DNA from: a virus
Reading direction: 5' to 3' (one strand)
DNA: 17,098 nucleotides
Virus genome (UHGV): UHGV-1343268
Shown one piece after another: positions 870-16,270 of this stretch. How positions within the stretch are numbered: position 1 is the stretch's first letter; each line of letters begins with the position of its first letter. A program made the translations under genes and the position numbers. The notes under the pieces were generated by a model. It ran no database searches, was not told the origin of the DNA, and saw only the letters and a list, made by a program, of their open reading frames with translations.

Positions 870-910
870 TCCAAAAAGAAAACCCGCAGTTCTTACGCTG
901 CGGGTTTGTT
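870..910. terminator. Bidirectional intrinsic terminator between convergent genes
   Basis: Perfect 7-bp stem CCCGCAG (883-889) / CTGCGGG (898-904) with an 8-nt loop; A-run upstream (AAAAAGAAAA) and T-run downstream, so the minus-strand reading is hairpin plus TTTTCTTTTT. Sits between the stop of the 523..804 CDS and the hok-like ORF. Confidence 0.6.
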
Positions 911-992: not shown

Positions 993-1133
993 TTACTGCT
1001 TACACTGTAAGAACGCCGCAAACTCCGCTCCCCAGAAGCTCATCCGTATTTCACACAGCGAACCGTGTAGCATCCAGATGATGAGGATTACCGTCACGCA
1101 GAACGTGATGGCTGTAAGCGATTTTTGCGACAT
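993..1133 (-). CDS. hok: Hok/Gef-family type I toxin-like small membrane peptide (46 aa)
   Basis: Manual minus-strand translation from ATG (complement of 1131-1133) to TAA (993-995): MSQKSLTAITFCVTVILIIWMLHGSLCEIRMSFWGAEFAAFLQCKQ. One hydrophobic transmembrane segment followed by SLCEIR and AAF, which match my recollection of the Hok/Gef signature (Hok has KSLCEIR...EVAAF). Below the 60-aa cutoff of the supplied ORF track. Confidence 0.6.
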   Translation of the reverse strand: MSQKSLTAITFCVTVILIIWMLHGSLCEIRMSFWGAEFAAFLQCKQ

Positions 1134-1323: not shown

Positions 1324-1584
1324 TTAATTCTGAGGTAAAGGCAAACTCATCTGATTGTTTCCCCTGTGTGAAGCTGGCAGCTCATGCCACGGGATACCTT
1401 CCGAAGAGTGAACGCCGGAGGCGTGTTTTGATGTGAATTTATGGAAAGCTTCCAGTGTTGAGAAGCATACGCCGCATTCCAGGTTGTTACACTGGTAATA
1501 CTTTTGCCGCACAGTGTTTGAATCGTTTTCCGGACGACTGGTGCGGATTCGGGCAGATGCGCCACAAAGCGGACAACGGAACAT
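1324..1584 (-). CDS. ogr: Ogr/Delta-family zinc-finger late-gene transcriptional activator
   Basis: N-terminus MFRCPLCGASARIRTSR...YYQCNNLECGVCF has the C-x2-C...C-x4-C arrangement and MF-CPLC start recalled for P2 Ogr. Strong SD (AAGGGAGG) 5 nt upstream of the ATG at 1584. Lies downstream of D as in P2. At 86 aa it is longer than P2 Ogr (72 aa). Confidence 0.8.
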   Translation of the reverse strand: MFRCPLCGASARIRTSRPENDSNTVRQKYYQCNNLECGVCFSTLEAFHKFTSKHASGVHSSEGIPWHELPASHRGNNQMSLPLPQN

Positions 1585-1873: not shown

Positions 1874-3013
1874 TCAGCTGCAAATTTCGTTGTTGCTGCA
1901 TGTTATCTCTTCAAGTGCAGCGGCGTTATAATCAACGGAATGATCAACCTGTGATGTAGGTATGCCAAAAAATTCAACCCCTGACATAATCATGTTGCCG
2001 ATATTCTCTCGCTGTTTATCACTGAGCCTGTCCCACCACTCAGGGGATGAATATGTATTTTCGGCCTTTGTGAAGAAAAAATACAGAAGGGTATTGAACA
2101 TCCTGTTAGCTGGGATCTTAATTAGTGTCCGTATAAAACGTCTGATAATTGTTGAAGTTCTCAGCCAACTGAACACTACATATCCCTTACCTCCGCAGGA
2201 AAAAGCATTGAAACATACTTGTTCCGCCGACACTGTAAGATCGCTCAAATCCTGAATTTTGGTCCCATCGAAATCCCTCTCCGGTGAAAGAATTGACGAA
2301 ACTACAATTGGTAAAGGCTCTGCAAAAGTGAAGATAACACTTTCAATTTCTGAAAATTGCCTGCTAAGTAGGATGCGGTCGAGGCTAGTTTTAAGATTAT
2401 TTAATTCAATTATTGCTGCATTTAAGCCACTTTGGTGCTGGTCGATTAATTTCTGAATATAATACTGTTCAACTTGTAGCTTTCCTTTATCGGCATTTTT
2501 AGCAAAATCAGAAGATAGCACTCCCCCTTCTTTGGCATAAATTTCTTTAGACAATGAACGAAACATTAAGGCAAAGCACTGCTCGTCCGTGCCTGTAAAT
2601 TTTTCGTTCTCTAGGCATGAAAATAAGATTCTGTCATGAACTGCACAAAATCCTGTAAAAGTGGATGCCTGATTGATACCGATCTTCTCGGGAAGCCATT
2701 TTCCGTTGTTTCTCATCAGGCTTGCTAAGTTCATTATCACCCCCATGACGTGATTGCTGGAGTCGGCGATCGCCTTAAGGCTACTGCTCTTAGATATCGT
2801 ATGCGCCTGAACGATGCGTTTATCACAATCTTCGTGCATGGATGCTGGCGCATAACATGCCTTTCTCTGCGAGAGAGACTTTGAAAATTTCAGTGCCTCG
2901 GCTTTGGATACCGGAGTTTCACGATCTCGACCAAGATGGCACTTTTTATACTTAAGTCCTGAATTACACCAGCACTTATCATTTCTTCCTAATTTCACTT
3001 TATTGTTTCCCAC
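1874..3013 (-). CDS. Cargo protein with N-terminal SEC-C-type zinc-binding motif, function unknown (about 379 aa); candidate accessory or defence gene
   Basis: ORF on the same strand as D and ogr and inserted between them. N-terminus KCWCNSGLKYKKCH matches the SEC-C metal-binding motif (C-x-C-x8-C-H). Markedly AT-rich compared with the flanking phage genes. The annotated start is a GTG with no clear SD; an in-frame GTG five codons downstream (MKLGRND...) is an alternative. The remainder of the protein has no domain I can name. Confidence 0.7.
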   Translation of the reverse strand: MGNNKVKLGRNDKCWCNSGLKYKKCHLGRDRETPVSKAEALKFSKSLSQRKACYAPASMHEDCDKRIVQAHTISKSSSLKAIADSSNHVMGVIMNLASLMRNNGKWLPEKIGINQASTFTGFCAVHDRILFSCLENEKFTGTDEQCFALMFRSLSKEIYAKEGGVLSSDFAKNADKGKLQVEQYYIQKLIDQHQSGLNAAIIELNNLKTSLDRILLSRQFSEIESVIFTFAEPLPIVVSSILSPERDFDGTKIQDLSDLTVSAEQVCFNAFSCGGKGYVVFSWLRTSTIIRRFIRTLIKIPANRMFNTLLYFFFTKAENTYSSPEWWDRLSDKQRENIGNMIMSGVEFFGIPTSQVDHSVDYNAAALEEITCSNNEICS

Positions 3014-3412
3014 GAAATTAATGTTCTATAACAAAAACACTTATCGAAAATAGGTGTAATTTATCACTCCGGCAGCTAAAAGATCATCTGCCACATGCAC
3101 GATAATAAATCTTCCTTGCGTCATCATCTCCCTCTGTTCTTAAATCAGGTGTTGCCTGTGTGCGGAGGATTCGCGAAGTACAGTAGCCGAAATGCATGAT
3201 CTTACCCATCAATGGTGAGCACGCGATAATAAGTGAGTCCCTAATTGACCACTCATGGCAATACAACTTCAACCAGCATTCATGACCACTATCCGTGGAT
3301 TAACTGTTACATAAGCAACACCTGCTCTAGGCACAAAGCGGGCTGCCAGATTGGGTCTGGCACTGTGCTGTGAGTGTGTCAGTTCTGGTTTGAGTCAATA
3401 CATCTAATTTGC

Positions 3413-4513
3413 TCATTCTGTTTCTGCTATCCATTCCGGGATTTTTGCTTCAAGCTCAAGCTGTGTGGTAAAGCCGCTGTTATCAATGGTGTGCTCGGCT
3501 TTTGCAATAATCCAGTCCTGATTATCGATGTCACTTTTGAAGCCTGTCACCGTGCCATGCATTTCGGGATAGAGTTCTGCGCGTCCACGCGCCAGCGTGA
3601 TGGAGAATGATGCGGCTCCGCGTTGTAGCTGCTGCCACTTTGCCGCCGCTGCACGTCTTGCTGCCTGCTCGTTCTGATAAGTCTTGCGTAACACAAACAC
3701 GTTGCCTTCCGCACCTTCCATATAGTCACCTTCACGGCTGCTGCTTTTCTCCTTTTTCGGTTTGCGGCGTTTCACGCTGACTTTTTTCTTTTTCCCGTAA
3801 TTAAGATCAAGCCAGTAAGCACGTACCCCCGTATACGCTTCGCGGTCAGCAATGCGGAACTGATGGCGATCGCCACTGCTGCGCGTGATGGCGAACGATG
3901 GCAACGGCTGGCCCTGTGCGTTCACGCCACCGCCTGGCATGATGAATAACAGATTACTGCTTTTTACCGTAGTGATTGCGCCCAGCATTTCCGCCATGCG
4001 CGTAAGGAAGGACATGTCGCTTTCTTCGGTCTGGTCGGCGTGGTCGATTTCAATATCCATCAGCATTTCGCTGATTTGTGGTTTCAGACCGTACCGATGA
4101 GCGATGGCGGATACCACGCGCTCAACGGTCACATCATGCCAGGACACCTCACGTTTAACGTTAAATTCATCCCGAAAATCTGCGCTTCTGGCTGAAACAG
4201 TCAGCCTGTCCGGCGGTCCTTCGTGAGCGATTTCATCAACAATGTAAGTGCCTTTTTCTGTCAGCGGTTCTCCTTTCCAGCCAATGAGAACCGTCAGGCG
4301 CGCGCCCCGTGGCGGTAGCTGCAACTGACCATCCGCATCATCCAGCGTGATGGTGAGCAGGTCCGCTTCAAATCCCCGGTTGTCGGTCAGTGACAGGCTC
4401 ATCAGGCGCTCTGCCACGCCGGACAGTGTTTCCCCCTCCGCGAGAATATCAAAATCCGGCATTTTCACGGGGTCTGTGCTCTGACTGAGCAATTGCATGG
4501 TGGTATCGGTCAT
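3413..4513 (-). CDS. D: P2 gpD-like tail protein (late control D family)
   Basis: Supplied ORF 3413..4645; the likely start is the internal ATG at 4513 (MTDTTMQLLSQ...) preceded by GGGAGGGA. Length (about 366 aa) and sequence character are consistent with the gpD family; position next to ogr matches P2 synteny. Confidence 0.88.
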   Translation of the reverse strand: MTDTTMQLLSQSTDPVKMPDFDILAEGETLSGVAERLMSLSLTDNRGFEADLLTITLDDADGQLQLPPRGARLTVLIGWKGEPLTEKGTYIVDEIAHEGPPDRLTVSARSADFRDEFNVKREVSWHDVTVERVVSAIAHRYGLKPQISEMLMDIEIDHADQTEESDMSFLTRMAEMLGAITTVKSSNLLFIMPGGGVNAQGQPLPSFAITRSSGDRHQFRIADREAYTGVRAYWLDLNYGKKKKVSVKRRKPKKEKSSSREGDYMEGAEGNVFVLRKTYQNEQAARRAAAAKWQQLQRGAASFSITLARGRAELYPEMHGTVTGFKSDIDNQDWIIAKAEHTIDNSGFTTQLELEAKIPEWIAETE

Positions 4514-4670
4514 CTGTTCCCTCCCTGTGCGGCATGGTCGCATGTGCGTGCATAGGGGGTTACTGCTTTTTGTTGTCGCCGTGGCGGGAGAACGGCGCAG
4601 GGGAGAGATTACGCGCGTGGTGGGTGATGATTGTTGCCGAATCATTTAACGGATACAAGGGGCTGAAGCT

Positions 4671-5855
4671 ATGAGTGAAACTCGTTTTCATGGTGCCCGT
4701 GTTACGGAAAGTACCGACCTGGTAACAGCGATTAATGATGTTGATTCCAGTGTTATCGGTATCGTGGCAACGGCGGATGATGCGGACGCGGAGCTGTTCC
4801 CGCTGAACAAGCCCACACTGCTGACCCGCGTCAATGACGTGCTGGGAAAATGCGGGACTACGGGGACGCTTTATCGTGCGCTTAAGGCTATTGCAGACCA
4901 GGTGAGCACAAAAGTGATCGTCGTTCGCGTGGCTGAACACAAAGAAGAAGGCGGTAAGACGCAGGATCAACTGGTTATCGGTGGTTCTGAATCTGACGGC
5001 AGCTATACGGGGATGTATGCGCTGCTTGTTGCAGAGCAGGATGAAAGCATCGGATACCGTCCGCGTATTCTGGCCGCGCCGGAGCTGGACACGGAGGCGG
5101 TGACAAAATCCCTGTGCGTGATTGCGGGTAAACTGCGCGCGTTTGTGTATGCCTCATGTCATGACTGTAACACGATGGCTGAGGCAATTACCTACCGCCA
5201 GAAATTCAACGAACGTGAGGTGATGCTCTTATGGCCGGACTTCATCGCCTACAACCCGAAAAGTGGCAAAAACGAAACGTTCCCCGCGCCTGCCTATGCG
5301 TGCGGCCTTCGTGCGTACATTGACCATGAGCAGGGCTGGCACAAATCGCTGTCCAACGTTCCTGTTAAAAATGTGCTGGGGATGTCCAGGCATGTTTTCT
5401 GGTCGTTGCAGGCCGAAGACAGTGATGCCAACAGCCTCAACAACAAAGAAATCACGACCATTATTCGTCGCAACGGGTTCCGCTTCTGGGGCAACCGCAC
5501 ACCGGAAACGAACGCCTACATCTTTGAGGTGTATACCCGAACCGCACAGGTGCTGGCTGATTCAATTGCGGAAGCGCAGTTTGAAACCATCGACAGTCCA
5601 CTGACGCCTGCGAACGTGAAGGATGTTATCAGTGCCATCAGGGCAAAACTGGATTCGCTGGTTACTGCCGGGAAACTGATTGGCGCGGAGTGCTGGTATG
5701 ACGTGGTGGATAACAGCACCACGGATTTACGTCAGGGGCGTGTGCGTATTCGCTACAAATATACGCCCGTTCCGCCACTGGAAGACATGGAGCTTTACCA
5801 GACGTTTACTGATGAATACTTTGAACCCGCATTTGCGGTGCTGGGAGGTGCCTGA
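4671..5855 (+). CDS. FI: Contractile tail sheath protein (P2 gpFI-like)
   Basis: 394 aa. Shares recalled gpFI motifs: DADAE-FPLNKP near the N-terminus, LRAF, WPDF, EQGWHK-LSNV, RRNGFRFWGNRT, YTRTAQV, YKYTPVPPLE. SD AAGGGG 8 nt upstream of the ATG. Confidence 0.93.
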   Translation: MSETRFHGARVTESTDLVTAINDVDSSVIGIVATADDADAELFPLNKPTLLTRVNDVLGKCGTTGTLYRALKAIADQVSTKVIVVRVAEHKEEGGKTQDQLVIGGSESDGSYTGMYALLVAEQDESIGYRPRILAAPELDTEAVTKSLCVIAGKLRAFVYASCHDCNTMAEAITYRQKFNEREVMLLWPDFIAYNPKSGKNETFPAPAYACGLRAYIDHEQGWHKSLSNVPVKNVLGMSRHVFWSLQAEDSDANSLNNKEITTIIRRNGFRFWGNRTPETNAYIFEVYTRTAQVLADSIAEAQFETIDSPLTPANVKDVISAIRAKLDSLVTAGKLIGAECWYDVVDNSTTDLRQGRVRIRYKYTPVPPLEDMELYQTFTDEYFEPAFAVLGGA

Positions 5856-6951: not shown

Positions 6952-9745
6952 TATCCGGGTCGCTTTCAGCGCCGTTGACAGGCTGACCCGGCCTGCCGAA
7001 AACGCCCGCCGCCTGATGGGGCAGTTTGGTGACTCCATCCAGCGAACGCAGGGGGCGATTAAAAATCTCGAGCGTCAGGCTCGTTCATTTGAGCGCGCCC
7101 GCGACGCTGTCAGTAAAGCGGATGCGGGTATCGTGAAAGCACGACGCCAGCTTAACGCCCTTAATCAGTTACAACGCACGGGTACAGTGCTCAGCGAAAA
7201 ACAACAAAAGCTGATGCAGCAGTTAAGCACCCGGCTTGAACGCCTGAATGAATCGCGCACACGGGAAATTCAGAAAATGCGGGAGCTTGGCGGAGAGCTG
7301 AAACGCCACGGCATTTCCCTGACAGGCAGCGATAACACCATCCAGCAGGCCATCAGACGCACCGAACAGTACAACAACCAGCTTGAACGCGAACGGCAGG
7401 CGCTTGCGCGTGTAACGCGGGCGCGTGAGTGGTATTCGCGCGCGCAGGAAACCGCGGGAAAACTGAAAACAGGTGGTGCGCTGGCAATTGGTGCGGCAGC
7501 GGCGGGCGGCTATGCTGCCGGGCGTTTTTTGCAGCCCGCGATCGGGTTCGGCAAAGAGATGTCCCGCGTTCAGGCGCTGACGCGAATCGACCAGAACAGC
7601 CCGCAGTTTAAGGCGCTGCGTGAGCAGGCGTTAAAACTTGGCTCTGAAACGCAGTTCACCGCAGGCGATGCCGCCAGTGGGCAGGCATTTCTTGCAATGG
7701 CAGGCTTCACACCGCAGGCCATTCAGGCTGCGCTTCCCGGAGTGCTGAGCATGGCAACGGCTGGCGGTATGGATCTCGGCGAGACGGCAGATATTGGCTC
7801 AAATATCCTGACGCAGTTCGGCCTTTCTGCTGACCAGATGGACCGGGTCGGTGACACACTCACCGCAGCGTTTACCCGTACCAACACTGACCTTCGCGCA
7901 CTGGGCGAAACCATGAAATATGCAGGTCCGGTGGCGGGTAAGCTGGGAATATCGCTGGAGCAGGCCGCAGCGATGGCTGGTGTGCTGGCGAATATGGGCA
8001 TCAGAGGGAGTGATGCCGGGACGGCAATGCGTGCCAGCCTGGCTCGTCTGGCATCACCGCCAAAGGCGGCGGCAGAAGCTCTGAAAGAGCTGGGCGTGTC
8101 CGTCTCGGATGCCGGGGGTAAAATGCGCCCGATGGAGGATGTGCTGGCCGACCTTTATAAAGCCACCCGCAAATACGGGGAAGTTGACCGGGTATCGTTC
8201 TTTAAGGACATTGCCGGAGAAGAGGCTTTCACATCGTTTATGGCGCTCGTTGATGCAGTGGGTGACGGTTCCTTACCCAAACTGAGAAAAGAACTTGAAG
8301 GCGCGCGCGGTGAGGCTGAACGCACAGCAAAGGTTATGGCCAACAACCTTGACGGCGATCTGAAATCACTCGGCAGTGCATGGGAAGGGTTGCGCATCCG
8401 CATTGCAGATCTGATTGACGGTCCGCTGCGTTCTGTCACGCAGTGGCTCACGCGGGTGGTATCAAGGGTGACGGCGCTGGCGCAGGCCCATCCGGCACTG
8501 ACGCGCCAGCTACTGATAGCAGGCGGTGCGTTGCTGGCAATGACTGCAACGGTTGGCTCGTTGTCGCTGGCTATTGGTGTGCTTGCTGGTCCGCTGGCAA
8601 AACTGCGTCTTGGTTTTTCTCTCCTGACCGGATCAATGAATGCTGTCAGGGTCCTGCCAGCACTATGGGGAATGGTGACGGGTTCCGTTTCTTTACTGGG
8701 AGGCGCTATCGGGGCGCTGTTCAGTCCGGTTGGTCTTATCGTGGCTGCGCTTGCCGGAGCTGCCGTCCTTATCTGGAAATACTGGGATCCCATCAGGGCA
8801 TTTTTTGCCGGGGTGTTCAGCGGGATTATGGAAAGGCTGAACCCGTTGCGTGAAACCTTTGAACGGTTTGGCCCTGTTTTTGACGCAATCGGAAGCGGGA
8901 TCAGCCAGGTGTTTAACTGGTTTAAATCGCTGCTGTCACCGATGGAGTCCAGCAAGGAAACGCTGGATAAATGTACCAGTGCTGGCGAGATATTCGGTAA
9001 CGTTCTTGGCGGTGCGTTACAACTTGTTCTGACACCTGCAAAAATGCTACTGGATACGCTGGCGTGGATACTTGAAAAACTTGGCGTCCTTCCGGATGAA
9101 GCGGAAAGGGCGCGCAAGAAAATCGAAGACGCACAGCGTGCGGCCATTCTTCAGGATAAGGTTGCCTTACTTCAGGGGGACCTGGCGAAAATCAATCCGC
9201 CGAAGCCTGTGGAAAATGGCAATGGCACCGGAGGTGATAAACCCAAAGACAACAAACCGCTCACAGACAGCAATACCGGGACGCTACGCAGACTCAGCAA
9301 AATTGCTGATAACACAGGTAAGCTGGTTGATGAGACGAAAAAACGCATTGGCCCTGGCGATATTGTCTTTAAGAACCTGCCCCGCGCACTTGCTGTTCGT
9401 GGGGAGTGGCAGGAGCGGAAGATTGCGCAGGTCAGTAAGCCTGCCCCCGCAATTAATATCACACCCGTAGTCCCGGCTCCGCTGCCTCCGGCGCTGGTCC
9501 CTGTTGTTGCGGCCAGCTCCCGCCCGGTGGCGGAGGCCATACGATCGCCAGTGGCATCAGTTCCTGCAGCTTCCCGTAATCGGGAGCCTGCTGTCTCCAG
9601 ATTTGGCGGTGAAATTCATGTTCATCTGCATAACGTTGTTACGCAGAATCCCCGCGAACTGGCGAAACTGGTCGGTGAAATGGTCAGGGCAGAAATGGAA
9701 CGGCGCGCCCGTGCCGGGCGTGGCAGTTTTTACGATAAAGATTGA
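6938..9745 (+). CDS. T: Tail tape measure protein (P2 gpT-like)
   Basis: Very long ORF (supplied as 6902..9745, 947 aa). Coiled-coil-rich N-terminal half, hydrophobic Gly/Ala-rich segments in the middle, located directly after E/E'. Start is uncertain among GTG 6902, ATG 6929 and ATG 6938; 6938 is chosen because GGGA lies about 9 nt upstream. Confidence 0.9.
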   Translation: MKTLDIRVAFSAVDRLTRPAENARRLMGQFGDSIQRTQGAIKNLERQARSFERARDAVSKADAGIVKARRQLNALNQLQRTGTVLSEKQQKLMQQLSTRLERLNESRTREIQKMRELGGELKRHGISLTGSDNTIQQAIRRTEQYNNQLERERQALARVTRAREWYSRAQETAGKLKTGGALAIGAAAAGGYAAGRFLQPAIGFGKEMSRVQALTRIDQNSPQFKALREQALKLGSETQFTAGDAASGQAFLAMAGFTPQAIQAALPGVLSMATAGGMDLGETADIGSNILTQFGLSADQMDRVGDTLTAAFTRTNTDLRALGETMKYAGPVAGKLGISLEQAAAMAGVLANMGIRGSDAGTAMRASLARLASPPKAAAEALKELGVSVSDAGGKMRPMEDVLADLYKATRKYGEVDRVSFFKDIAGEEAFTSFMALVDAVGDGSLPKLRKELEGARGEAERTAKVMANNLDGDLKSLGSAWEGLRIRIADLIDGPLRSVTQWLTRVVSRVTALAQAHPALTRQLLIAGGALLAMTATVGSLSLAIGVLAGPLAKLRLGFSLLTGSMNAVRVLPALWGMVTGSVSLLGGAIGALFSPVGLIVAALAGAAVLIWKYWDPIRAFFAGVFSGIMERLNPLRETFERFGPVFDAIGSGISQVFNWFKSLLSPMESSKETLDKCTSAGEIFGNVLGGALQLVLTPAKMLLDTLAWILEKLGVLPDEAERARKKIEDAQRAAILQDKVALLQGDLAKINPPKPVENGNGTGGDKPKDNKPLTDSNTGTLRRLSKIADNTGKLVDETKKRIGPGDIVFKNLPRALAVRGEWQERKIAQVSKPAPAINITPVVPAPLPPALVPVVAASSRPVAEAIRSPVASVPAASRNREPAVSRFGGEIHVHLHNVVTQNPRELAKLVGEMVRAEMERRARAGRGSFYDKD

Positions 9746-10322: not shown

Positions 10323-10351
10323 TTGAATAACAAACAACAGGATTTTATAAT
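10323..10351 (+). promoter_or_regulatory. Near-consensus sigma70 promoter for the acetyltransferase cargo gene
   Basis: TTGAAT (10323-10328), 17-nt spacer, TATAAT (10346-10351), in an AT-rich intergenic region about 50 nt upstream of the cargo gene SD. Confidence 0.6.
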
Positions 10352-10402
10352 CTCTTAACCTTATAACATGTGTGGTCTGAAATAATAATTAAGGAGATTA
10401 TC

Positions 10403-10975
10403 GTGCTGTCTTACCTAATGGCAATTCACTTTGTTTTATTTGGGAACTCTACTAATTTAAAAAACTTCTGGAAACATGAAGTAATTCGGCGGAAACGTAT
10501 GGATATCTGGAGGCTTTTAAGAGAGAAAAAGCAGCGTAACAGGAATTTCCTTTTCTGGTGGCGGTTGGCTAACGAAATGTATATTAATGGTAATAAATTA
10601 CATAAGAAAGCAGCCAAGAAGTTAAACAGTAAAATAATTAACAAATTTGGTTGCGAAATTGGATTGGGCGCAAATATTGGAAAAGGGTTAACAATTCCCC
10701 ATCATGCTGGAATTGTTGTTCATTTTGCTGTTGATGCTGGTGAAAATCTGGTGTTACGACAGAATACGACCATTGGACAGATAGATGGTGACATACCTGG
10801 TTCAAGAGTAAAAATTGGTAGCAACGTTGATATCGGAGCTAATTGTTGCATCATTGGATTATCCCGTAAAATTGGGGATAATGTAAAAATAGGTGCAATG
10901 TCTTTTATAAATAAAGATATACCATCGAACTGCACATATATAACTAAAAAGAGCGGTGCTGTATTGTATAAATAG
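10403..10975 (+). CDS. Hexapeptide-repeat acyltransferase, serine-O-acetyltransferase (CysE/WcaB)-like; cargo gene
   Basis: The C-terminal half carries repeated [LIV]-G-x-x-x-x hexapeptide units (IGLGANIGKGLTI, KIGSNVDIGANCCIIG, KIGDNVKIGAMSFI) resembling the left-handed beta-helix of CysE-type acetyltransferases. Strongly AT-rich. SD AAGGAG (10391-10396) precedes an in-frame GTG at 10403; the ATG at 10418 is an alternative start. The supplied ORF begins at GTG 10370. Confidence 0.78.
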   Translation: MLSYLMAIHFVLFGNSTNLKNFWKHEVIRRKRMDIWRLLREKKQRNRNFLFWWRLANEMYINGNKLHKKAAKKLNSKIINKFGCEIGLGANIGKGLTIPHHAGIVVHFAVDAGENLVLRQNTTIGQIDGDIPGSRVKIGSNVDIGANCCIIGLSRKIGDNVKIGAMSFINKDIPSNCTYITKKSGAVLYK

Positions 10976-10984
10976 AGTACATAA

Positions 10985-11020
10985 AGCCATCGATATTTCT
11001 ATCGATGGCTTTTTCTTTTT
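10985..11020. terminator. Strong intrinsic terminator between the convergent acetyltransferase and tfa genes
   Basis: Perfect 11-bp stem AGCCATCGATA (10985-10995) / TATCGATGGCT (11000-11010), loop TTTC, then TTTTCTTTTT. The T-run overlaps the tfa stop codon. Confidence 0.75.
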
Positions 11021-11597
11021 ATTGTGGGGCGACTGGCCACTCAATATCTGCTGCTACTGTTGTATCAACACGATGCAACAATACTCGATATGTCTTCCAT
11101 GCAGCCAGTAACGATGTCTCTTCCTCCGTCGCAATATCTAAATCTATAGCATCCTGAAGTGGTGCAATATGCTCACTGGCTACCTGCATCAGGCTGTTTT
11201 TTGTTTCTTCCGCCTCCCTTATCCGAAATAGTTTTTCTGCTTCTGCATCTTTCACCCAGGATGTGCCGTTCCACTTCTGATACTCTCCATACGGCGACAA
11301 CCAGGTAACATTTTCCGGTAATGGACCGAGTTCAGAAATAAATAACGAGTCCCCTGATGCCACGTCATAAACCGTTTTACCCCGATGGTCTTCAACGAGA
11401 TGCCACGATGCCTCATCACTGTTGAAAACGGCCACGAAGCCAGCCGGAATATCTGGCGGGGCAATATCGGTACTGTTTGCAGGCAGACCTGTATGAGGTG
11501 GAATGTATGCATCACCTTCACCAATAAACTCATTGGTTCCGGTCAGTAGATTATAAATTTTTATGGTCCGTGAGTGTTCACTCATTCTGAATGTCAT
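11019..11597 (-). CDS. tfa: Tail fibre assembly chaperone (lambda Tfa / P2 gpG class)
   Basis: 192 aa. C-terminal [30 protein letters not shown] resembles the conserved Tfa C-terminus. The start ATG overlaps the tail-fibre stop (TAATG), indicating translational coupling. Confidence 0.85.
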
Positions 11598-13916
11598 TAT
11601 GCAAGCCTCACAATATAGTTAAATGCGATGTTTTTTACGGTGTTTTCTTTGTTACCCGTAGCGTTAACGGTGATGGTGTGTCCGTGGGGACCAATAATGA
11701 CAGAATGGGCATGAGCACCAATGCCGATAGTGTGGTTATGGGCACCGATATATACATTGTGAGCATGCCCGCCTGCGCTCGACGTGGTACCAGTACCTAA
11801 CGCAGCGTTATAACCGGCTGATACACCATTCCCCGCGCCAGTGTGACCAACAGGTATATTGTGTGAATGATTTCCAGCGCTATTCGTAGTTTTTGTGCCG
11901 TAATCAAATGAACTGGTCGTTTTAGTACCGTAATCAAACGACGATGTGGTTTTCGTCCCCAAATCCGTACTGGATGCGCTGGCGCTGTGGGTGTGCGATT
12001 TAATGCCGTCCTGTTCCTGAGACAATACGGCACGACCACTGCCGGGCTTGCCCTTAATCGTCCAGCCACGCATATCAGGAATAACGCCTGACGGATAAGC
12101 GACTGCAAGTTTCGGGTATGCAGATTTGTCAAAAGTCTGCCCCTGCATCAGGGCATAGCCAGACGGAACGGTATCTGATGGCCACGGGATTGGTGCACCG
12201 ACTGGATAAAACTCTGCAGGAGGATGAGCCGAGGTGTAAAGCTGCGCCCACGGCGACCAGTTTGCGTCGGTCGTATCCCGTCGTGAACGAATAAATGCCG
12301 GAGCATGAGCACCGCTTGTACCACTCCAGCCGATGAGTAACTCACCTTCGCCAACGGCTGTCATCCCTTTCAGGTGAATGATATTTCCATACGCTGTTGG
12401 ATATCCGTTGTTATACACCTCGTATAACTCAAGACCTGTTGCCCCCTGCGTATTGTCTGTCAGCGCGGTTACCCGACCTTTTGAAGACAGATTAACTGAT
12501 GATACTGCTGTTCCACCTGACGGTAATGCCCCGATCTCTGATGCCGTTGGCTTATTTCTGGAGTTATAGTCCCTTCGCCAGCCAGGTGAATAATCTGNNN
12601 NNNNNNNNNNNNNNNNNNNNNNNNNNNNNNNNNNNNNNNNNNNNNNNNNNNNNNNNNNNNAATGCGGATCGTCATCGCTGACTTTATCCCCATTACTTCA
12701 ATGACAGCTCCTGCGAGATGAATATTACCGCAGCCAGTATCAGTAATGATTTTATTATTGCCATAAGACCAGGAACCCTTGCACATCCAGTATGGATGGT
12801 TAAATGCTCCCTGAGAATCCAGCCACTCGATAAACTGTGCAGTCGTCCAGTCTCCTGTTGTTGTGCTTACTGACCCACCGAAGGCACGGCTGGCACCAAT
12901 ATTTTTCGTAAAGGTGTCTTTGCCAGGGATATCCGCACCGTTCTTATCTTTCTGCAGACGTTTCTCAGCATTGTCATTGGCTGCTTTTACTGCCTTTGGC
13001 GTTGCTGCCAGCGTTTCAGACGTGCTGTTGGTCGCGCTGCTTAGCTGGACTATCCCTTTCTGTGCTGTCGTTGCATCCTGTGCGGTGTATTTCCCGTCAG
13101 CCAGGTCATACGCGGCCTTAACTGCTTTTGGCGTTGCCGCCAGCGTTTCAGACGTGCTGTTGGTCGCGCTGCTTAGCTGGACTATCCCTTTCTGTGCTGT
13201 CGTTGCATCCTGTGCGGTGTATTTCCCGTCAGCCAGGTCATACGCGGCCTTAACTGCTTTTGGCGTTGCCGCCAGCGTTTCAGANNNNNNNNNNCAGCCA
13301 GGTCATACGCGGCCTTAACTGCTTTTGGCGTTGCCGCCAGCGTTTCAGAATCGCTGTTAGTGGCGCTACTGAGTTGAACAAAGCCTTTTGCGGTCAGCGA
13401 GGCATCCGGGTGACATCGTGACTGTTCATGCTCTTTCAGTTTGTTATCCACGTAATCCACTGTGGCCATCACCATGGTGTTATCCACGGTAAGCGCCACA
13501 GTGGCAGTGCTGGATACGGTCAGAATGGTGCGAAATGTTTGTGCACGTCCGGACCCTTCGGCAACGGCTGGCTTGTAACTTTCGGCAGTATTGCCCACCG
13601 CGATTAAATCGCCGTGCTCATCAAACACACCAATTTCCCGGATCCAGAATCCGCCCGTTTCTGGAGGAATAACCAGCTCCGCAATAATGCGGTTCTGATG
13701 TGTTGCGTCCAGGATGACGCGATTAACAGTGTGTCGCCACACCTCATGCACCAGACGGGTCTGCTTACTGTCTGGTGTGGGCAACGCGCCGCCACCGTCG
13801 CCCACGGCCATATGAGTCAGGCGGACAGGCTTACCATCTGGCGCGGCTGCCTGAGCTAATTTTTTGGCACCTGTATCGGTGATAACGGTTTTAAATTTTC
13901 GTGTTGTGGTACTCAT
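11597..13916 (-). CDS. H: Mosaic tail fibre protein (P2 gpH-like N-terminus, lambda Stf-like C-terminus); interrupted by two N-runs
   Basis: N-terminal ORF (13916 downward) [24 protein letters not shown]...HEVWRH...[15 protein letters not shown]...[13 protein letters not shown]...[20 protein letters not shown] matches the gpH N-terminal baseplate-attachment region as I recall it. C-terminal segment ...[34 protein letters not shown]...HxH repeats...[11 protein letters not shown] matches the lambda Stf-type tip. By manual translation the frame is continuous from the 12598-12660 gap to the stop at 11597. True length and frame across the gaps cannot be determined. Confidence 0.82.
12598..12660. 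other. Run of 63 ambiguous bases (N), assembly gap or masked segment inside the tail fibre gene
   Basis: Seen in sequence. Confidence 0.95.
12981..13400. repeat. Tandem 132-bp direct repeats (44-aa coding units) inside the tail fibre gene
   Basis: Units 13021-13152 and 13153-13284 appear identical on reading. Diverged partial copies flank them (about 12981-13020 and 13295-13400). The 10-N run at 13285-13294 replaces roughly 77 nt of a unit. On the coding strand the unit encodes ...[44 protein letters not shown]... Confidence 0.9.
13285..13294. other. Run of 10 ambiguous bases (N) inside the tandem-repeat array, probably a collapsed-repeat gap
   Basis: Seen in sequence; the flanking sequence shows repeat phase is not preserved across the N-run. 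Confidence 0.95.
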
Positions 13917-15692: not shown

Positions 15693-16270
15693 TGCGGGCC
15701 TCCTGTCGAATCGCTGCCACCTTTAACGCCACCGTGTTTATGCGTATGCACTGTGATACCGTTTGAGGTGAAATTGCCGCCGCTGTGCGTGATATTGCCG
15801 CTCATCTTTCCCCCTTTTGTGACGTCAAGCGTCGCCGTTCTCAGAAGGTTTGTGCATTCCACGACGGGCGTATCCAGTTTCACGCTGACGGATGCCTGCA
15901 GGCTGGCTGTTTTCATGCCGCTGGCGCTCAGTGCGCCAGCGTCTGCGTCGTAGCGGAACACCGCGCCGTCCGGTGCGGTGATCACGATTTCTTTCAGGCT
16001 TTTGCCGGGGGCCGGACTGGCATCACTCCACAGACTGCCAATTATCATGGCGGTTTCCGGGTTGCCGCCAATGCAGGCAATTACCACCTGTTCGCCTGGT
16101 GATGGCGGTAGCCACACATTGAAGGCTCCCGCGCGCGTGGTGTTCCAGCGCAGCCAGCCTGTTTCCAGTTCGCCGCTGCGAACGCGCACGCGCCAGGACT
16201 TCTCATCAACTTCAGAGATGATCCCGGTGCGGATGATGTTGCTCAGCAGTCGCATGAGTTCTGCGCTCAC
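15689..16270 (-). CDS. V: Baseplate spike / assembly protein V (P2 gpV-like)
   Basis: 193 aa with a Gly-rich C-terminus; lies upstream of W. Start overlaps the stop of the preceding gene. Confidence 0.85.
   Translation of the reverse strand: MSAELMRLLSNIIRTGIISEVDEKSWRVRVRSGELETGWLRWNTTRAGAFNVWLPPSPGEQVVIACIGGNPETAMIIGSLWSDASPAPGKSLKEIVITAPDGAVFRYDADAGALSASGMKTASLQASVSVKLDTPVVECTNLLRTATLDVTKGGKMSGNITHSGGNFTSNGITVHTHKHGGVKGGSDSTGGPQ

Follow-up and report, generated by a model that had tools for sequence, protein, structure and literature searches.

The intergenic region between the genes D and FI of a P2-like prophage raises the question of which late promoters serve two genes that are read away from each other. 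Late transcription in P2 requires Ogr and the alpha subunit of RNA polymerase (rpoA109 phenotype). In the window, by which the whole stretch of 17,098 nucleotides analysed here is meant, D and FI are divergently transcribed from the two sides of a gap of 157 bp (4514-4670), and an earlier sequence-only reading found no perfect copy of the textbook Ogr box, TGT-N12-ACA, in it. Whether the box is missing, or has been missed, is examined below from the annotated sites of related phages, the conservation of the gap and the geometry of the promoters that it could hold.

Prophage identity and gene order

Similarity to known genomes identifies the window as an E. coli prophage of the P88-like type, within the P2 family. 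Megablast searches gave 95-97% identity to P88-like phages (Xuanwuvirus, Peduoviridae) across the shared two-thirds, and in E. coli O103, O111 and other strains revealed prophages matching the window at 99% and integrated beside a tRNA-Leu gene. On the plus strand FI is followed by FII, E, E', T, U and then an acetyltransferase moron, while tfa, H, I, J, W, V, S and R are encoded on the minus strand (Table 1). Compared with P2, the FI-to-U block is inverted and D is not the last structural gene of the F operon; unlike in P2, the start of D lies 157 bp from FI, on the opposite strand. The same gene order, including the divergence of D and FI, is found in P88 and phiSM (Xuanwuvirus), phiT5282H (Novemvirus) and Kp4877-2 (Reginaelenavirus), and the divergent D/FI order is already known from deposited genomes of these three Peduoviridae genera.

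The SEC-C/YecA-like gene that lies between D and ogr is probably a cargo insertion. Its GC content is 41% compared with 51% for the window, and P88 and the other relatives examined do not have it, their ogr genes lying on the same strand no more than about 40 nt beyond D.

Table 1. Coordinates of genes, predicted regulatory elements and hairpins in the window, and annotated activator sites of P2, 186 and P4
Feature	Position	Strand	Description
Terminator-like hairpin, bidirectional	880-907	.	3' of hok
hok	993-1133	-	hok/gef-family toxin gene at prophage end
ogr	1324-1584	-	86 aa, Ogr/Delta-family activator; Pfam Ogr_Delta
SEC-C/YecA-like gene (probable cargo)	1874-3013	-	379 aa; Pfam SEC-C motif
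D (gpD, tail/baseplate hub)	3413-4513	-	Pfam Phage_GPD, 65 bits; RefSeq annotation of near-identical prophage
Predicted D transcription start	4526-4528	-	near 4527, about 55.5 nt from box centre
-10-like hexamer, predicted D promoter	4534-4539	-	GACCAT; relatives AATCAT, GATCCT or AATTAT
Predicted Ogr-type activator box	4567-4593	.	TTTTT-GTTGT-N12-AGA-AC; from sequence and conservation
-35-like hexamer, predicted FI promoter	4603-4608	+	GAGAGA; relatives GTGAGA or GTGAGT
-10-like hexamer, predicted FI promoter	4626-4631	+	GATGAT; relatives GATTAT
Predicted FI transcription start	4637-4640	+	about 55.5 nt from box centre; leader about 33 nt
FI (gpFI, tail sheath)	4671-5855	+	Pfam sheath domains; heads FI-FII-E-E'-T-U
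Strong hairpin terminator, 13-bp stem	10983-11012	.	between acetyltransferase moron and convergent tfa
P2 PF activator site			TTGT-GCTGTCGATTAG-CCA
P2 PO/PP activator site			TTGT-GTCAGTGATAAG-CCA
P2 PV activator site			TTGT-CTGGTAGTTCTA-CAA
186 pV/p12 and pJ sites			right half CCA
P4 Psid and PLL sites			right half ACA, perfect

Literal consensus searches

A literal scan of 4514-4670 for TGT-N12-ACA returned no match, in agreement with the sequence-only reading, and the perfect motif was likewise absent by literal scan from the O/P intergenic region of L002, a near-identical complete prophage. The whole window contains two perfect copies (837 and 3022) compared with 4.6 expected by chance, and in both the window and L002 the number of literal matches is at or below chance. 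These matches, at 837 near hok, at 3022 and at L002 43097, 3' of Q, were set aside as they lie outside late intergenic regions; the copy at 3022-3039, directly 5' of the cargo gene, is probably due to chance.

When the same literal pattern was applied to P2, none of its annotated activator sites matched. The activator sites and transcription starts of P2 were taken from its RefSeq record and the sites of 186 and P4 from annotated GenBank records (Table 1); the P2 PF and PO/PP sites each have one mismatch to TGT-N12-ACA and the PV site has two. The textbook Ogr box is a consensus, the invariant part of which is (G)TTGT and the last A, 12 + 2 nt further on. Relaxing the pattern to one mismatch gave 85 matches in comparison with 83 expected and is uninformative alone, and the D/FI site described below was identified by conservation and geometry, not by a loose pattern.

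The conclusion that the gap has no Ogr box was thus a false negative: a predicted site, TGT-N12-AGA, is present at 4574-4591, one mismatch off the consensus, and the missing box is largely an artefact because the search pattern was too strict. As P2's own promoters deviate from the consensus, literal scans will falsely call Ogr boxes missing in P2-like prophages.

A predicted variant activator box in the D/FI intergenic region

Positions 4567-4593 of the window read TTTTTGTTGT-CGCCGTGGCGGG-AGAAC, i.e., TTTTTGTTGT-N12-AGAAC, with the core TGT of the predicted box at 4574-4576, the spacer at 4577-4588, the AGA at 4589-4591 and the centre at 4582.5. The same motif is present in the O/P gap of L002 as TTTTGTTGT-AAGAAAACGGCC-AGAAC, and with no mismatch allowed TGTTGT-N12-AGAAC occurs at just two sites in the 49 kb of L002, namely in the D/FI and O/P gaps.

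A position weight matrix (PWM) was built from relatives only, with the window-type sites left out. In the 33-kb prophage it ranked the O/P and D/FI sites first and second (24.5 and 22.3 bits), followed by a third-best match of 13.2 bits; the maximum in shuffled versions of the prophage averaged 12.3 +/- 2.4 bits and reached 22.4 bits in one of 200 shuffles. The score alone is not overwhelming, and the case for the box, as a sequence prediction, rests on position and conservation. In the complete genome of phiT5282H exactly two boxes were detected, at FI/D and P/O, with 27.6 bits each and a next-best match of 7.6 bits. Further PWM or pattern matches on the minus strand, at L002 33506 (inside a DUF6645 cargo gene) and at 9023, 14406, 3690 and 7203 of the window, were rejected as chance, having noise-level scores or lying inside or antisense to genes.

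Altogether, the D/FI gap appears to hold a one-mismatch Ogr-type late-activator site, the position of which suggests its use by both divergent genes.

Conservation of the box in related prophages

A search of genome contigs with FI revealed 23 loci at 69-98% identity, and D is divergent from FI in all 23. These loci belong to Salmonella, Citrobacter, Edwardsiella, Enterobacter, Kosakonia, Symbiopectobacterium, Erwinia, Mixta, Pantoea, Izhakiella, Kluyvera, Trabulsiella and Serratia, with one further contig labelled Vagococcus; FI relatives at 33-48% identity, which had no D within 3 kb upstream, were left out. Across the loci examined, spanning about a dozen enterobacterial genera, the box is kept and the 12-nt spacer varies. 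A MAFFT alignment of 14 distinct diverged D/FI gaps shows no variation in the T-run, in TTGT or in the A of AGA, with a freely changing spacer, and the O/P regions of IMG/VR relatives with terminases 73-92% identical have the same conserved frame with a variable spacer. A search of viral contigs with V returned just relatives of 96-98% identity and was uninformative on divergence.

Perfect copies of TGT-N12-ACA were detected at orthologous positions in three cases, namely the D/FI site of the Kluyvera prophage L022, the O/P site of IMG/VR L137 and both the D/FI and O/P sites of Klebsiella phage Kp4877-2, in which D and FI are divergent and followed by ogr, as in the window clade. Homology, and not resemblance alone, thereby links the window element to the textbook box. 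AGA, sometimes replaced by AGG, forms the right half of nearly all sites of the Xuanwuvirus and Novemvirus types.

Thirteen phage records match the D/FI intergenic region at 92-98% identity, and none has a regulatory feature annotated there; neither ogr nor late promoters are mentioned in the papers examined on P88 and phiSM.

The Ogr homologue and the right half-site

Regarding the activator itself, the sequence-only reading described an Ogr homologue longer than P2 Ogr, and its length of 86 aa was confirmed. The protein scores 52.4 bits against Pfam Ogr_Delta (cut-off 26.3), has a CX2C-X24-CX4C arrangement with all four Cys conserved and is 35% identical to P2 Ogr, from which it differs by a 2-aa insertion in the zinc-finger loop and a longer C-terminus. 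Its relatives in the clade are of 82-88 aa and have the C-terminal extension in common. Their loops are X22 or X24; AGA boxes accompany both, and the X24 relative L022 has ACA. Loop length as the cause of the half-site was rejected, there being no clean correlation between X22/X24 and AGA/ACA.

The proposal that the recognition site may differ is supported in part: the right half of the predicted box is AGA compared with CCA in P2 and 186 and ACA in P4, and its G stands at a position that is C or A in all characterised sites; its connection with the length of Ogr or with the loop insertion was not upheld. The box is here assumed to be bound by an Ogr-type protein. That the Xuanwuvirus/Novemvirus Ogr proteins (84-88 aa), with their conserved C-terminal extension and in some cases an X24 loop, have co-evolved with an asymmetric T-tract-GTTGT-N11-CAGA site, the right half of which is no longer ACA/CCA, is an idea we regard as doubtful; if true, the late-promoter specificity of the clade would be shielded in part from activators of the P2, 186 and P4 types and hence from cross-activation by or of P4-like satellites.

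A different explanation is that the canonical box is truly absent and that the longer Ogr recognises another element, for example the imperfect GC dyad pointed out in the sequence-only reading. This dyad exists (CGCCGT 4577-4582 / ACGGCG 4592-4597), and its existence, the lack of a perfect TGT-N12-ACA in the gap and the altered loop and C-terminus of Ogr all agree with this explanation. As a recognition element, however, the dyad does not stand: it sits in the variable spacer and right flank of the predicted box, is lineage-specific and is lacking at the O/P site and in almost every relative, their spacers being different, and it is the surrounding TTGT...AGA frame that is conserved instead. 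Moreover, P2's own sites are equally imperfect, and X22 and X24 relatives share one box type, with a perfect ACA in the X24 relative L022, so that recognition of the dyad in place of a box is highly improbable.

In P88 (L001, NC_026014) an ogr gene 99% identical to that of the window is located at 1082-1339 and is unannotated in the RefSeq record.

Predicted promoters

The geometry of the predicted promoters was obtained from an ungapped, box-anchored alignment of all loci. On the FI side the -35-like hexamer is at a constant 11 nt past the box in all relatives and the -10-like hexamer begins 43.5 nt from the box centre in 16 of 16 relatives, with A2 and T6 invariant; the best FI hexamers in the window are GAGAGA-17-GATGAT. 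From the position of this -10-like hexamer and the geometry of P2, FI transcription is predicted to start near 4638. The -10-like hexamer of D begins at the mirror position, likewise at a distance of 43.5 nt, and A30 and T34 of alignment A1 do not vary; the predicted D leader of about 14 nt holds the Shine-Dalgarno sequence GGGAGGG (4525-4519). The corresponding elements at the other box are TTGAGA and CATCAT, separated by 17-18 nt, on the O side and TAATCT on the P side, and hexamers with A2 and T6 are thus found 43.5-44.5 nt from the centre on the FI, D, O and P sides.

These distances are those of P2, in which the -10 hexamers are GAAACT at +43.5 (PO) and GAAAAT at +44.5 (PF) from the box centre and the mapped starts lie at 55.5 nt (PO and PP) and 56.5-58.5 nt (PF). 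A consensus scan detected no sigma-70 promoter in 4400-4800 of the window, which fits the expectation for activator-dependent promoters. The -35 and -10 assignments in the window are weak matches by design, and all promoter assignments are predictions. An alternative -35 candidate, GCGTGG (4615-4620) with a downstream -10, was discarded, as it disagrees with the ungapped alignment and would put the box near -68.

Several sequence features of the gap vary between lineages. An alternating CGCGCG(CG) run lies between the -35-like and -10-like hexamers (4612-4617 in the window, 40003-40010 in L002) and is also present on the D side of most relatives (L008-L037), the side differing by lineage. The window has A at 4604 where L002, L006 and L007 have T, changing the -35-like GTGAGA to GAGAGA, and this A might weaken the predicted PF in this prophage. 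An inverted repeat, ATGATT/AATCAT (4627-4632 / 4640-4645), brackets the predicted FI start in window-type (Xuanwuvirus) sequences only.

Comparison with P2, 186 and P4

The predicted arrangement at D/FI resembles that at PP/PO of P2 and p12/pV of 186, where a single quasi-palindromic TTGT-N12-NNA is located mid-way in a divergent gap of 154-173 bp, with a -10-like hexamer about 43.5 nt from the centre, a poor -35 and an activator of the Ogr_Delta family. In the window clade this divergent shared-box arrangement occurs twice (O/P and D/FI), whereas P2 and 186 have no second pair, and the right half is AGA, not the CCA of P2 PP/PO and 186 p12/pV. The O/P box is moreover flipped, the TTGT half facing O in L002 (39958-39981) and P (orf12) in P2 (3057-3087) and 186 (3798-3817). 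The D/FI box also resembles P2 PF and 186 pJ in lying 5' of the gene for the tail sheath, with the degenerate half nearer to that gene and TTGT farther away, and the distance from TGT to ATG is 97 nt in the window compared with 91 nt at P2 PF. The P2/186 operon reads FI-FII-E-T-U-D-ogr, while that of the window ends after U, with D-ogr predicted to be read oppositely from the same box.

The left half (G)TTGT and the N12 spacing are common to the window box and the annotated sites of P2, 186 and P4. The T5 run before GTTGT is a feature of the window clade and is absent from the P2, 186 and P4 sites, and the clade PWM did not detect the P2 or 186 sites. These two differences, together with the fact that binding of Ogr to the box is a prediction, would be compatible with the T-tract/TTGT...AGA element being bound by IHF, a host regulator or another phage protein, or being a mere bend, with late activation not via Ogr. 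We consider this very unlikely, since mapped Ogr/B/Delta sites have an identical core and spacing, the element is confined to the two divergent late regions, with perfect textbook boxes as orthologues, and an Ogr homologue is kept beside D throughout the clade.

S/V overlap and proposed late operons

The sequence-only reading further proposed that S overlaps the start of V and that R-S-V-W-J-I-H-tfa forms one operon. The overlap was verified: it comprises the 4 nt GTGA (16267-16270, minus strand), with the S stop codon TGA at 16269-16267 and a GTG start codon of V at 16270 preceded 7 nt upstream by GGAGG, and the annotations of P88 and phiT5282H show the same overlap of 4 nt. V-W-J-I-H-tfa of the P2 V operon is homologous and in the same order. 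In P2, however, S and V are separated by a terminator, orf30 and an activator site, whereas the window has the overlap there and no box was found; the separate PV of P2 goes together with the insertion of the terminator and orf30.

Upstream of V and R, PWM scans of the window, L002 and phiT5282H did not detect a box, nor did a loose geometry scan (TTGT-N12-NNA with an A2/T6 hexamer at 43-45 nt) find a candidate there in the window or L002, and no convincing minus-strand terminators were found between O and tfa. The overlap and the lack of a detectable PV-type box support the single operon, and together with the divergence of D and FI they also support the wider claim that the late-promoter architecture is unlike that of P2. 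The simplest reading of the sequence is probably a single operon that extends for about 13 kb from PO to tfa, likely ending at the hairpin 10983-11012. A weak PV-like promoter inside S is possible, as PV of P2 itself matches the consensus poorly.

Such a cryptic PV-type promoter, or use of the D/FI box by FI alone with D transcribed from an unrelated weak constitutive or early promoter, would leave the map with other promoters than the two boxes provide. The D-side -35 region is not conserved and the D -10 GACCAT is weak, and weak internal promoters escape motif scans, the P2 PV being only TGT-N12-CAA. Nevertheless, we regard either variant as unlikely: in all relatives the D hexamer has A2 and T6 at the distance seen for FI, O and P, the gap contains no sigma-70 consensus, gpD is a structural tail protein needed late, and the scans for geometry and terminators returned nothing that would separate V or R from the genes upstream.

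Proposed model of late transcription

The whole explanation that we consider probable from these comparisons is that a variant Ogr box centred at 4582.5 is shared by divergent, Ogr-dependent promoters PF and PD. We infer that the phage's Ogr homologue binds the D/FI box and recruits RNA polymerase to both promoters, in parallel with P2 Ogr and 186 B acting at the single site common to PP/PO and p12/pV, and that the centre of the box would lie about 55.5 nt upstream of both activator-dependent starts (PF near 4638, PD near 4527). A second copy of the box, centred at 39969.5 of L002, would serve O and P, with predicted starts about 55 nt to either side; with no third box, all genes from O to tfa, R-S-V-W-J-I-H among them, would form a single long operon. 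The PD transcript would carry D, the cargo gene, ogr and hok and end at the hairpin 880-907, the likely end of leftward D-(cargo)-ogr-hok transcription; ogr would thus still be among the last genes of a late operon, as it is in P2.

An inversion of the box and the FI-to-U block relative to P2 would explain this layout: it would leave D and ogr without the F-operon promoter but beside a quasi-symmetric box, and the inverted block would keep TTGT distal to FI, as at P2 PF. The deviations from the P2-type late system are thus the second divergent pair PD/PF, the lack of a PV found and the AGA right half with its T-rich flank.

The model gives a testable promoter map of two boxes and four promoters (PO, PP, PF and the new PD) with no PV, for a group of prophages that is widely distributed among pathogenic E. 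coli (O103, O111 and relatives) and in other Enterobacterales. The location of ogr downstream of D could create positive feedback, and a quasi-symmetric activator site may let an operon be split by inversion without a new regulatory element. The significance is modest, being the extension of a well-understood system.

Other features of the window

The moron, a serine O-acetyltransferase gene (10370-10975, plus strand) with a GC content of 35%, is wedged between U and the convergent tfa and has its own sigma-70-like promoter, TTGAAT-17-TATAAT (10323-10351); similar acetyltransferase genes adjoin the tail-fibre genes of Stx and other coliphages.

The tail-fibre gene H (11597-13916, minus strand) is broken into ORFs in three frames (13916-13182, 12786-12469 and 12418-11597) and contains 132-nt tandem repeats at 12965-13425. 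Positions 12594-13295 of the window do not align to L002, which is elsewhere 98-99% identical. Gene H could be a disrupted or mosaic fibre gene, or could vary in its repeat copy number.
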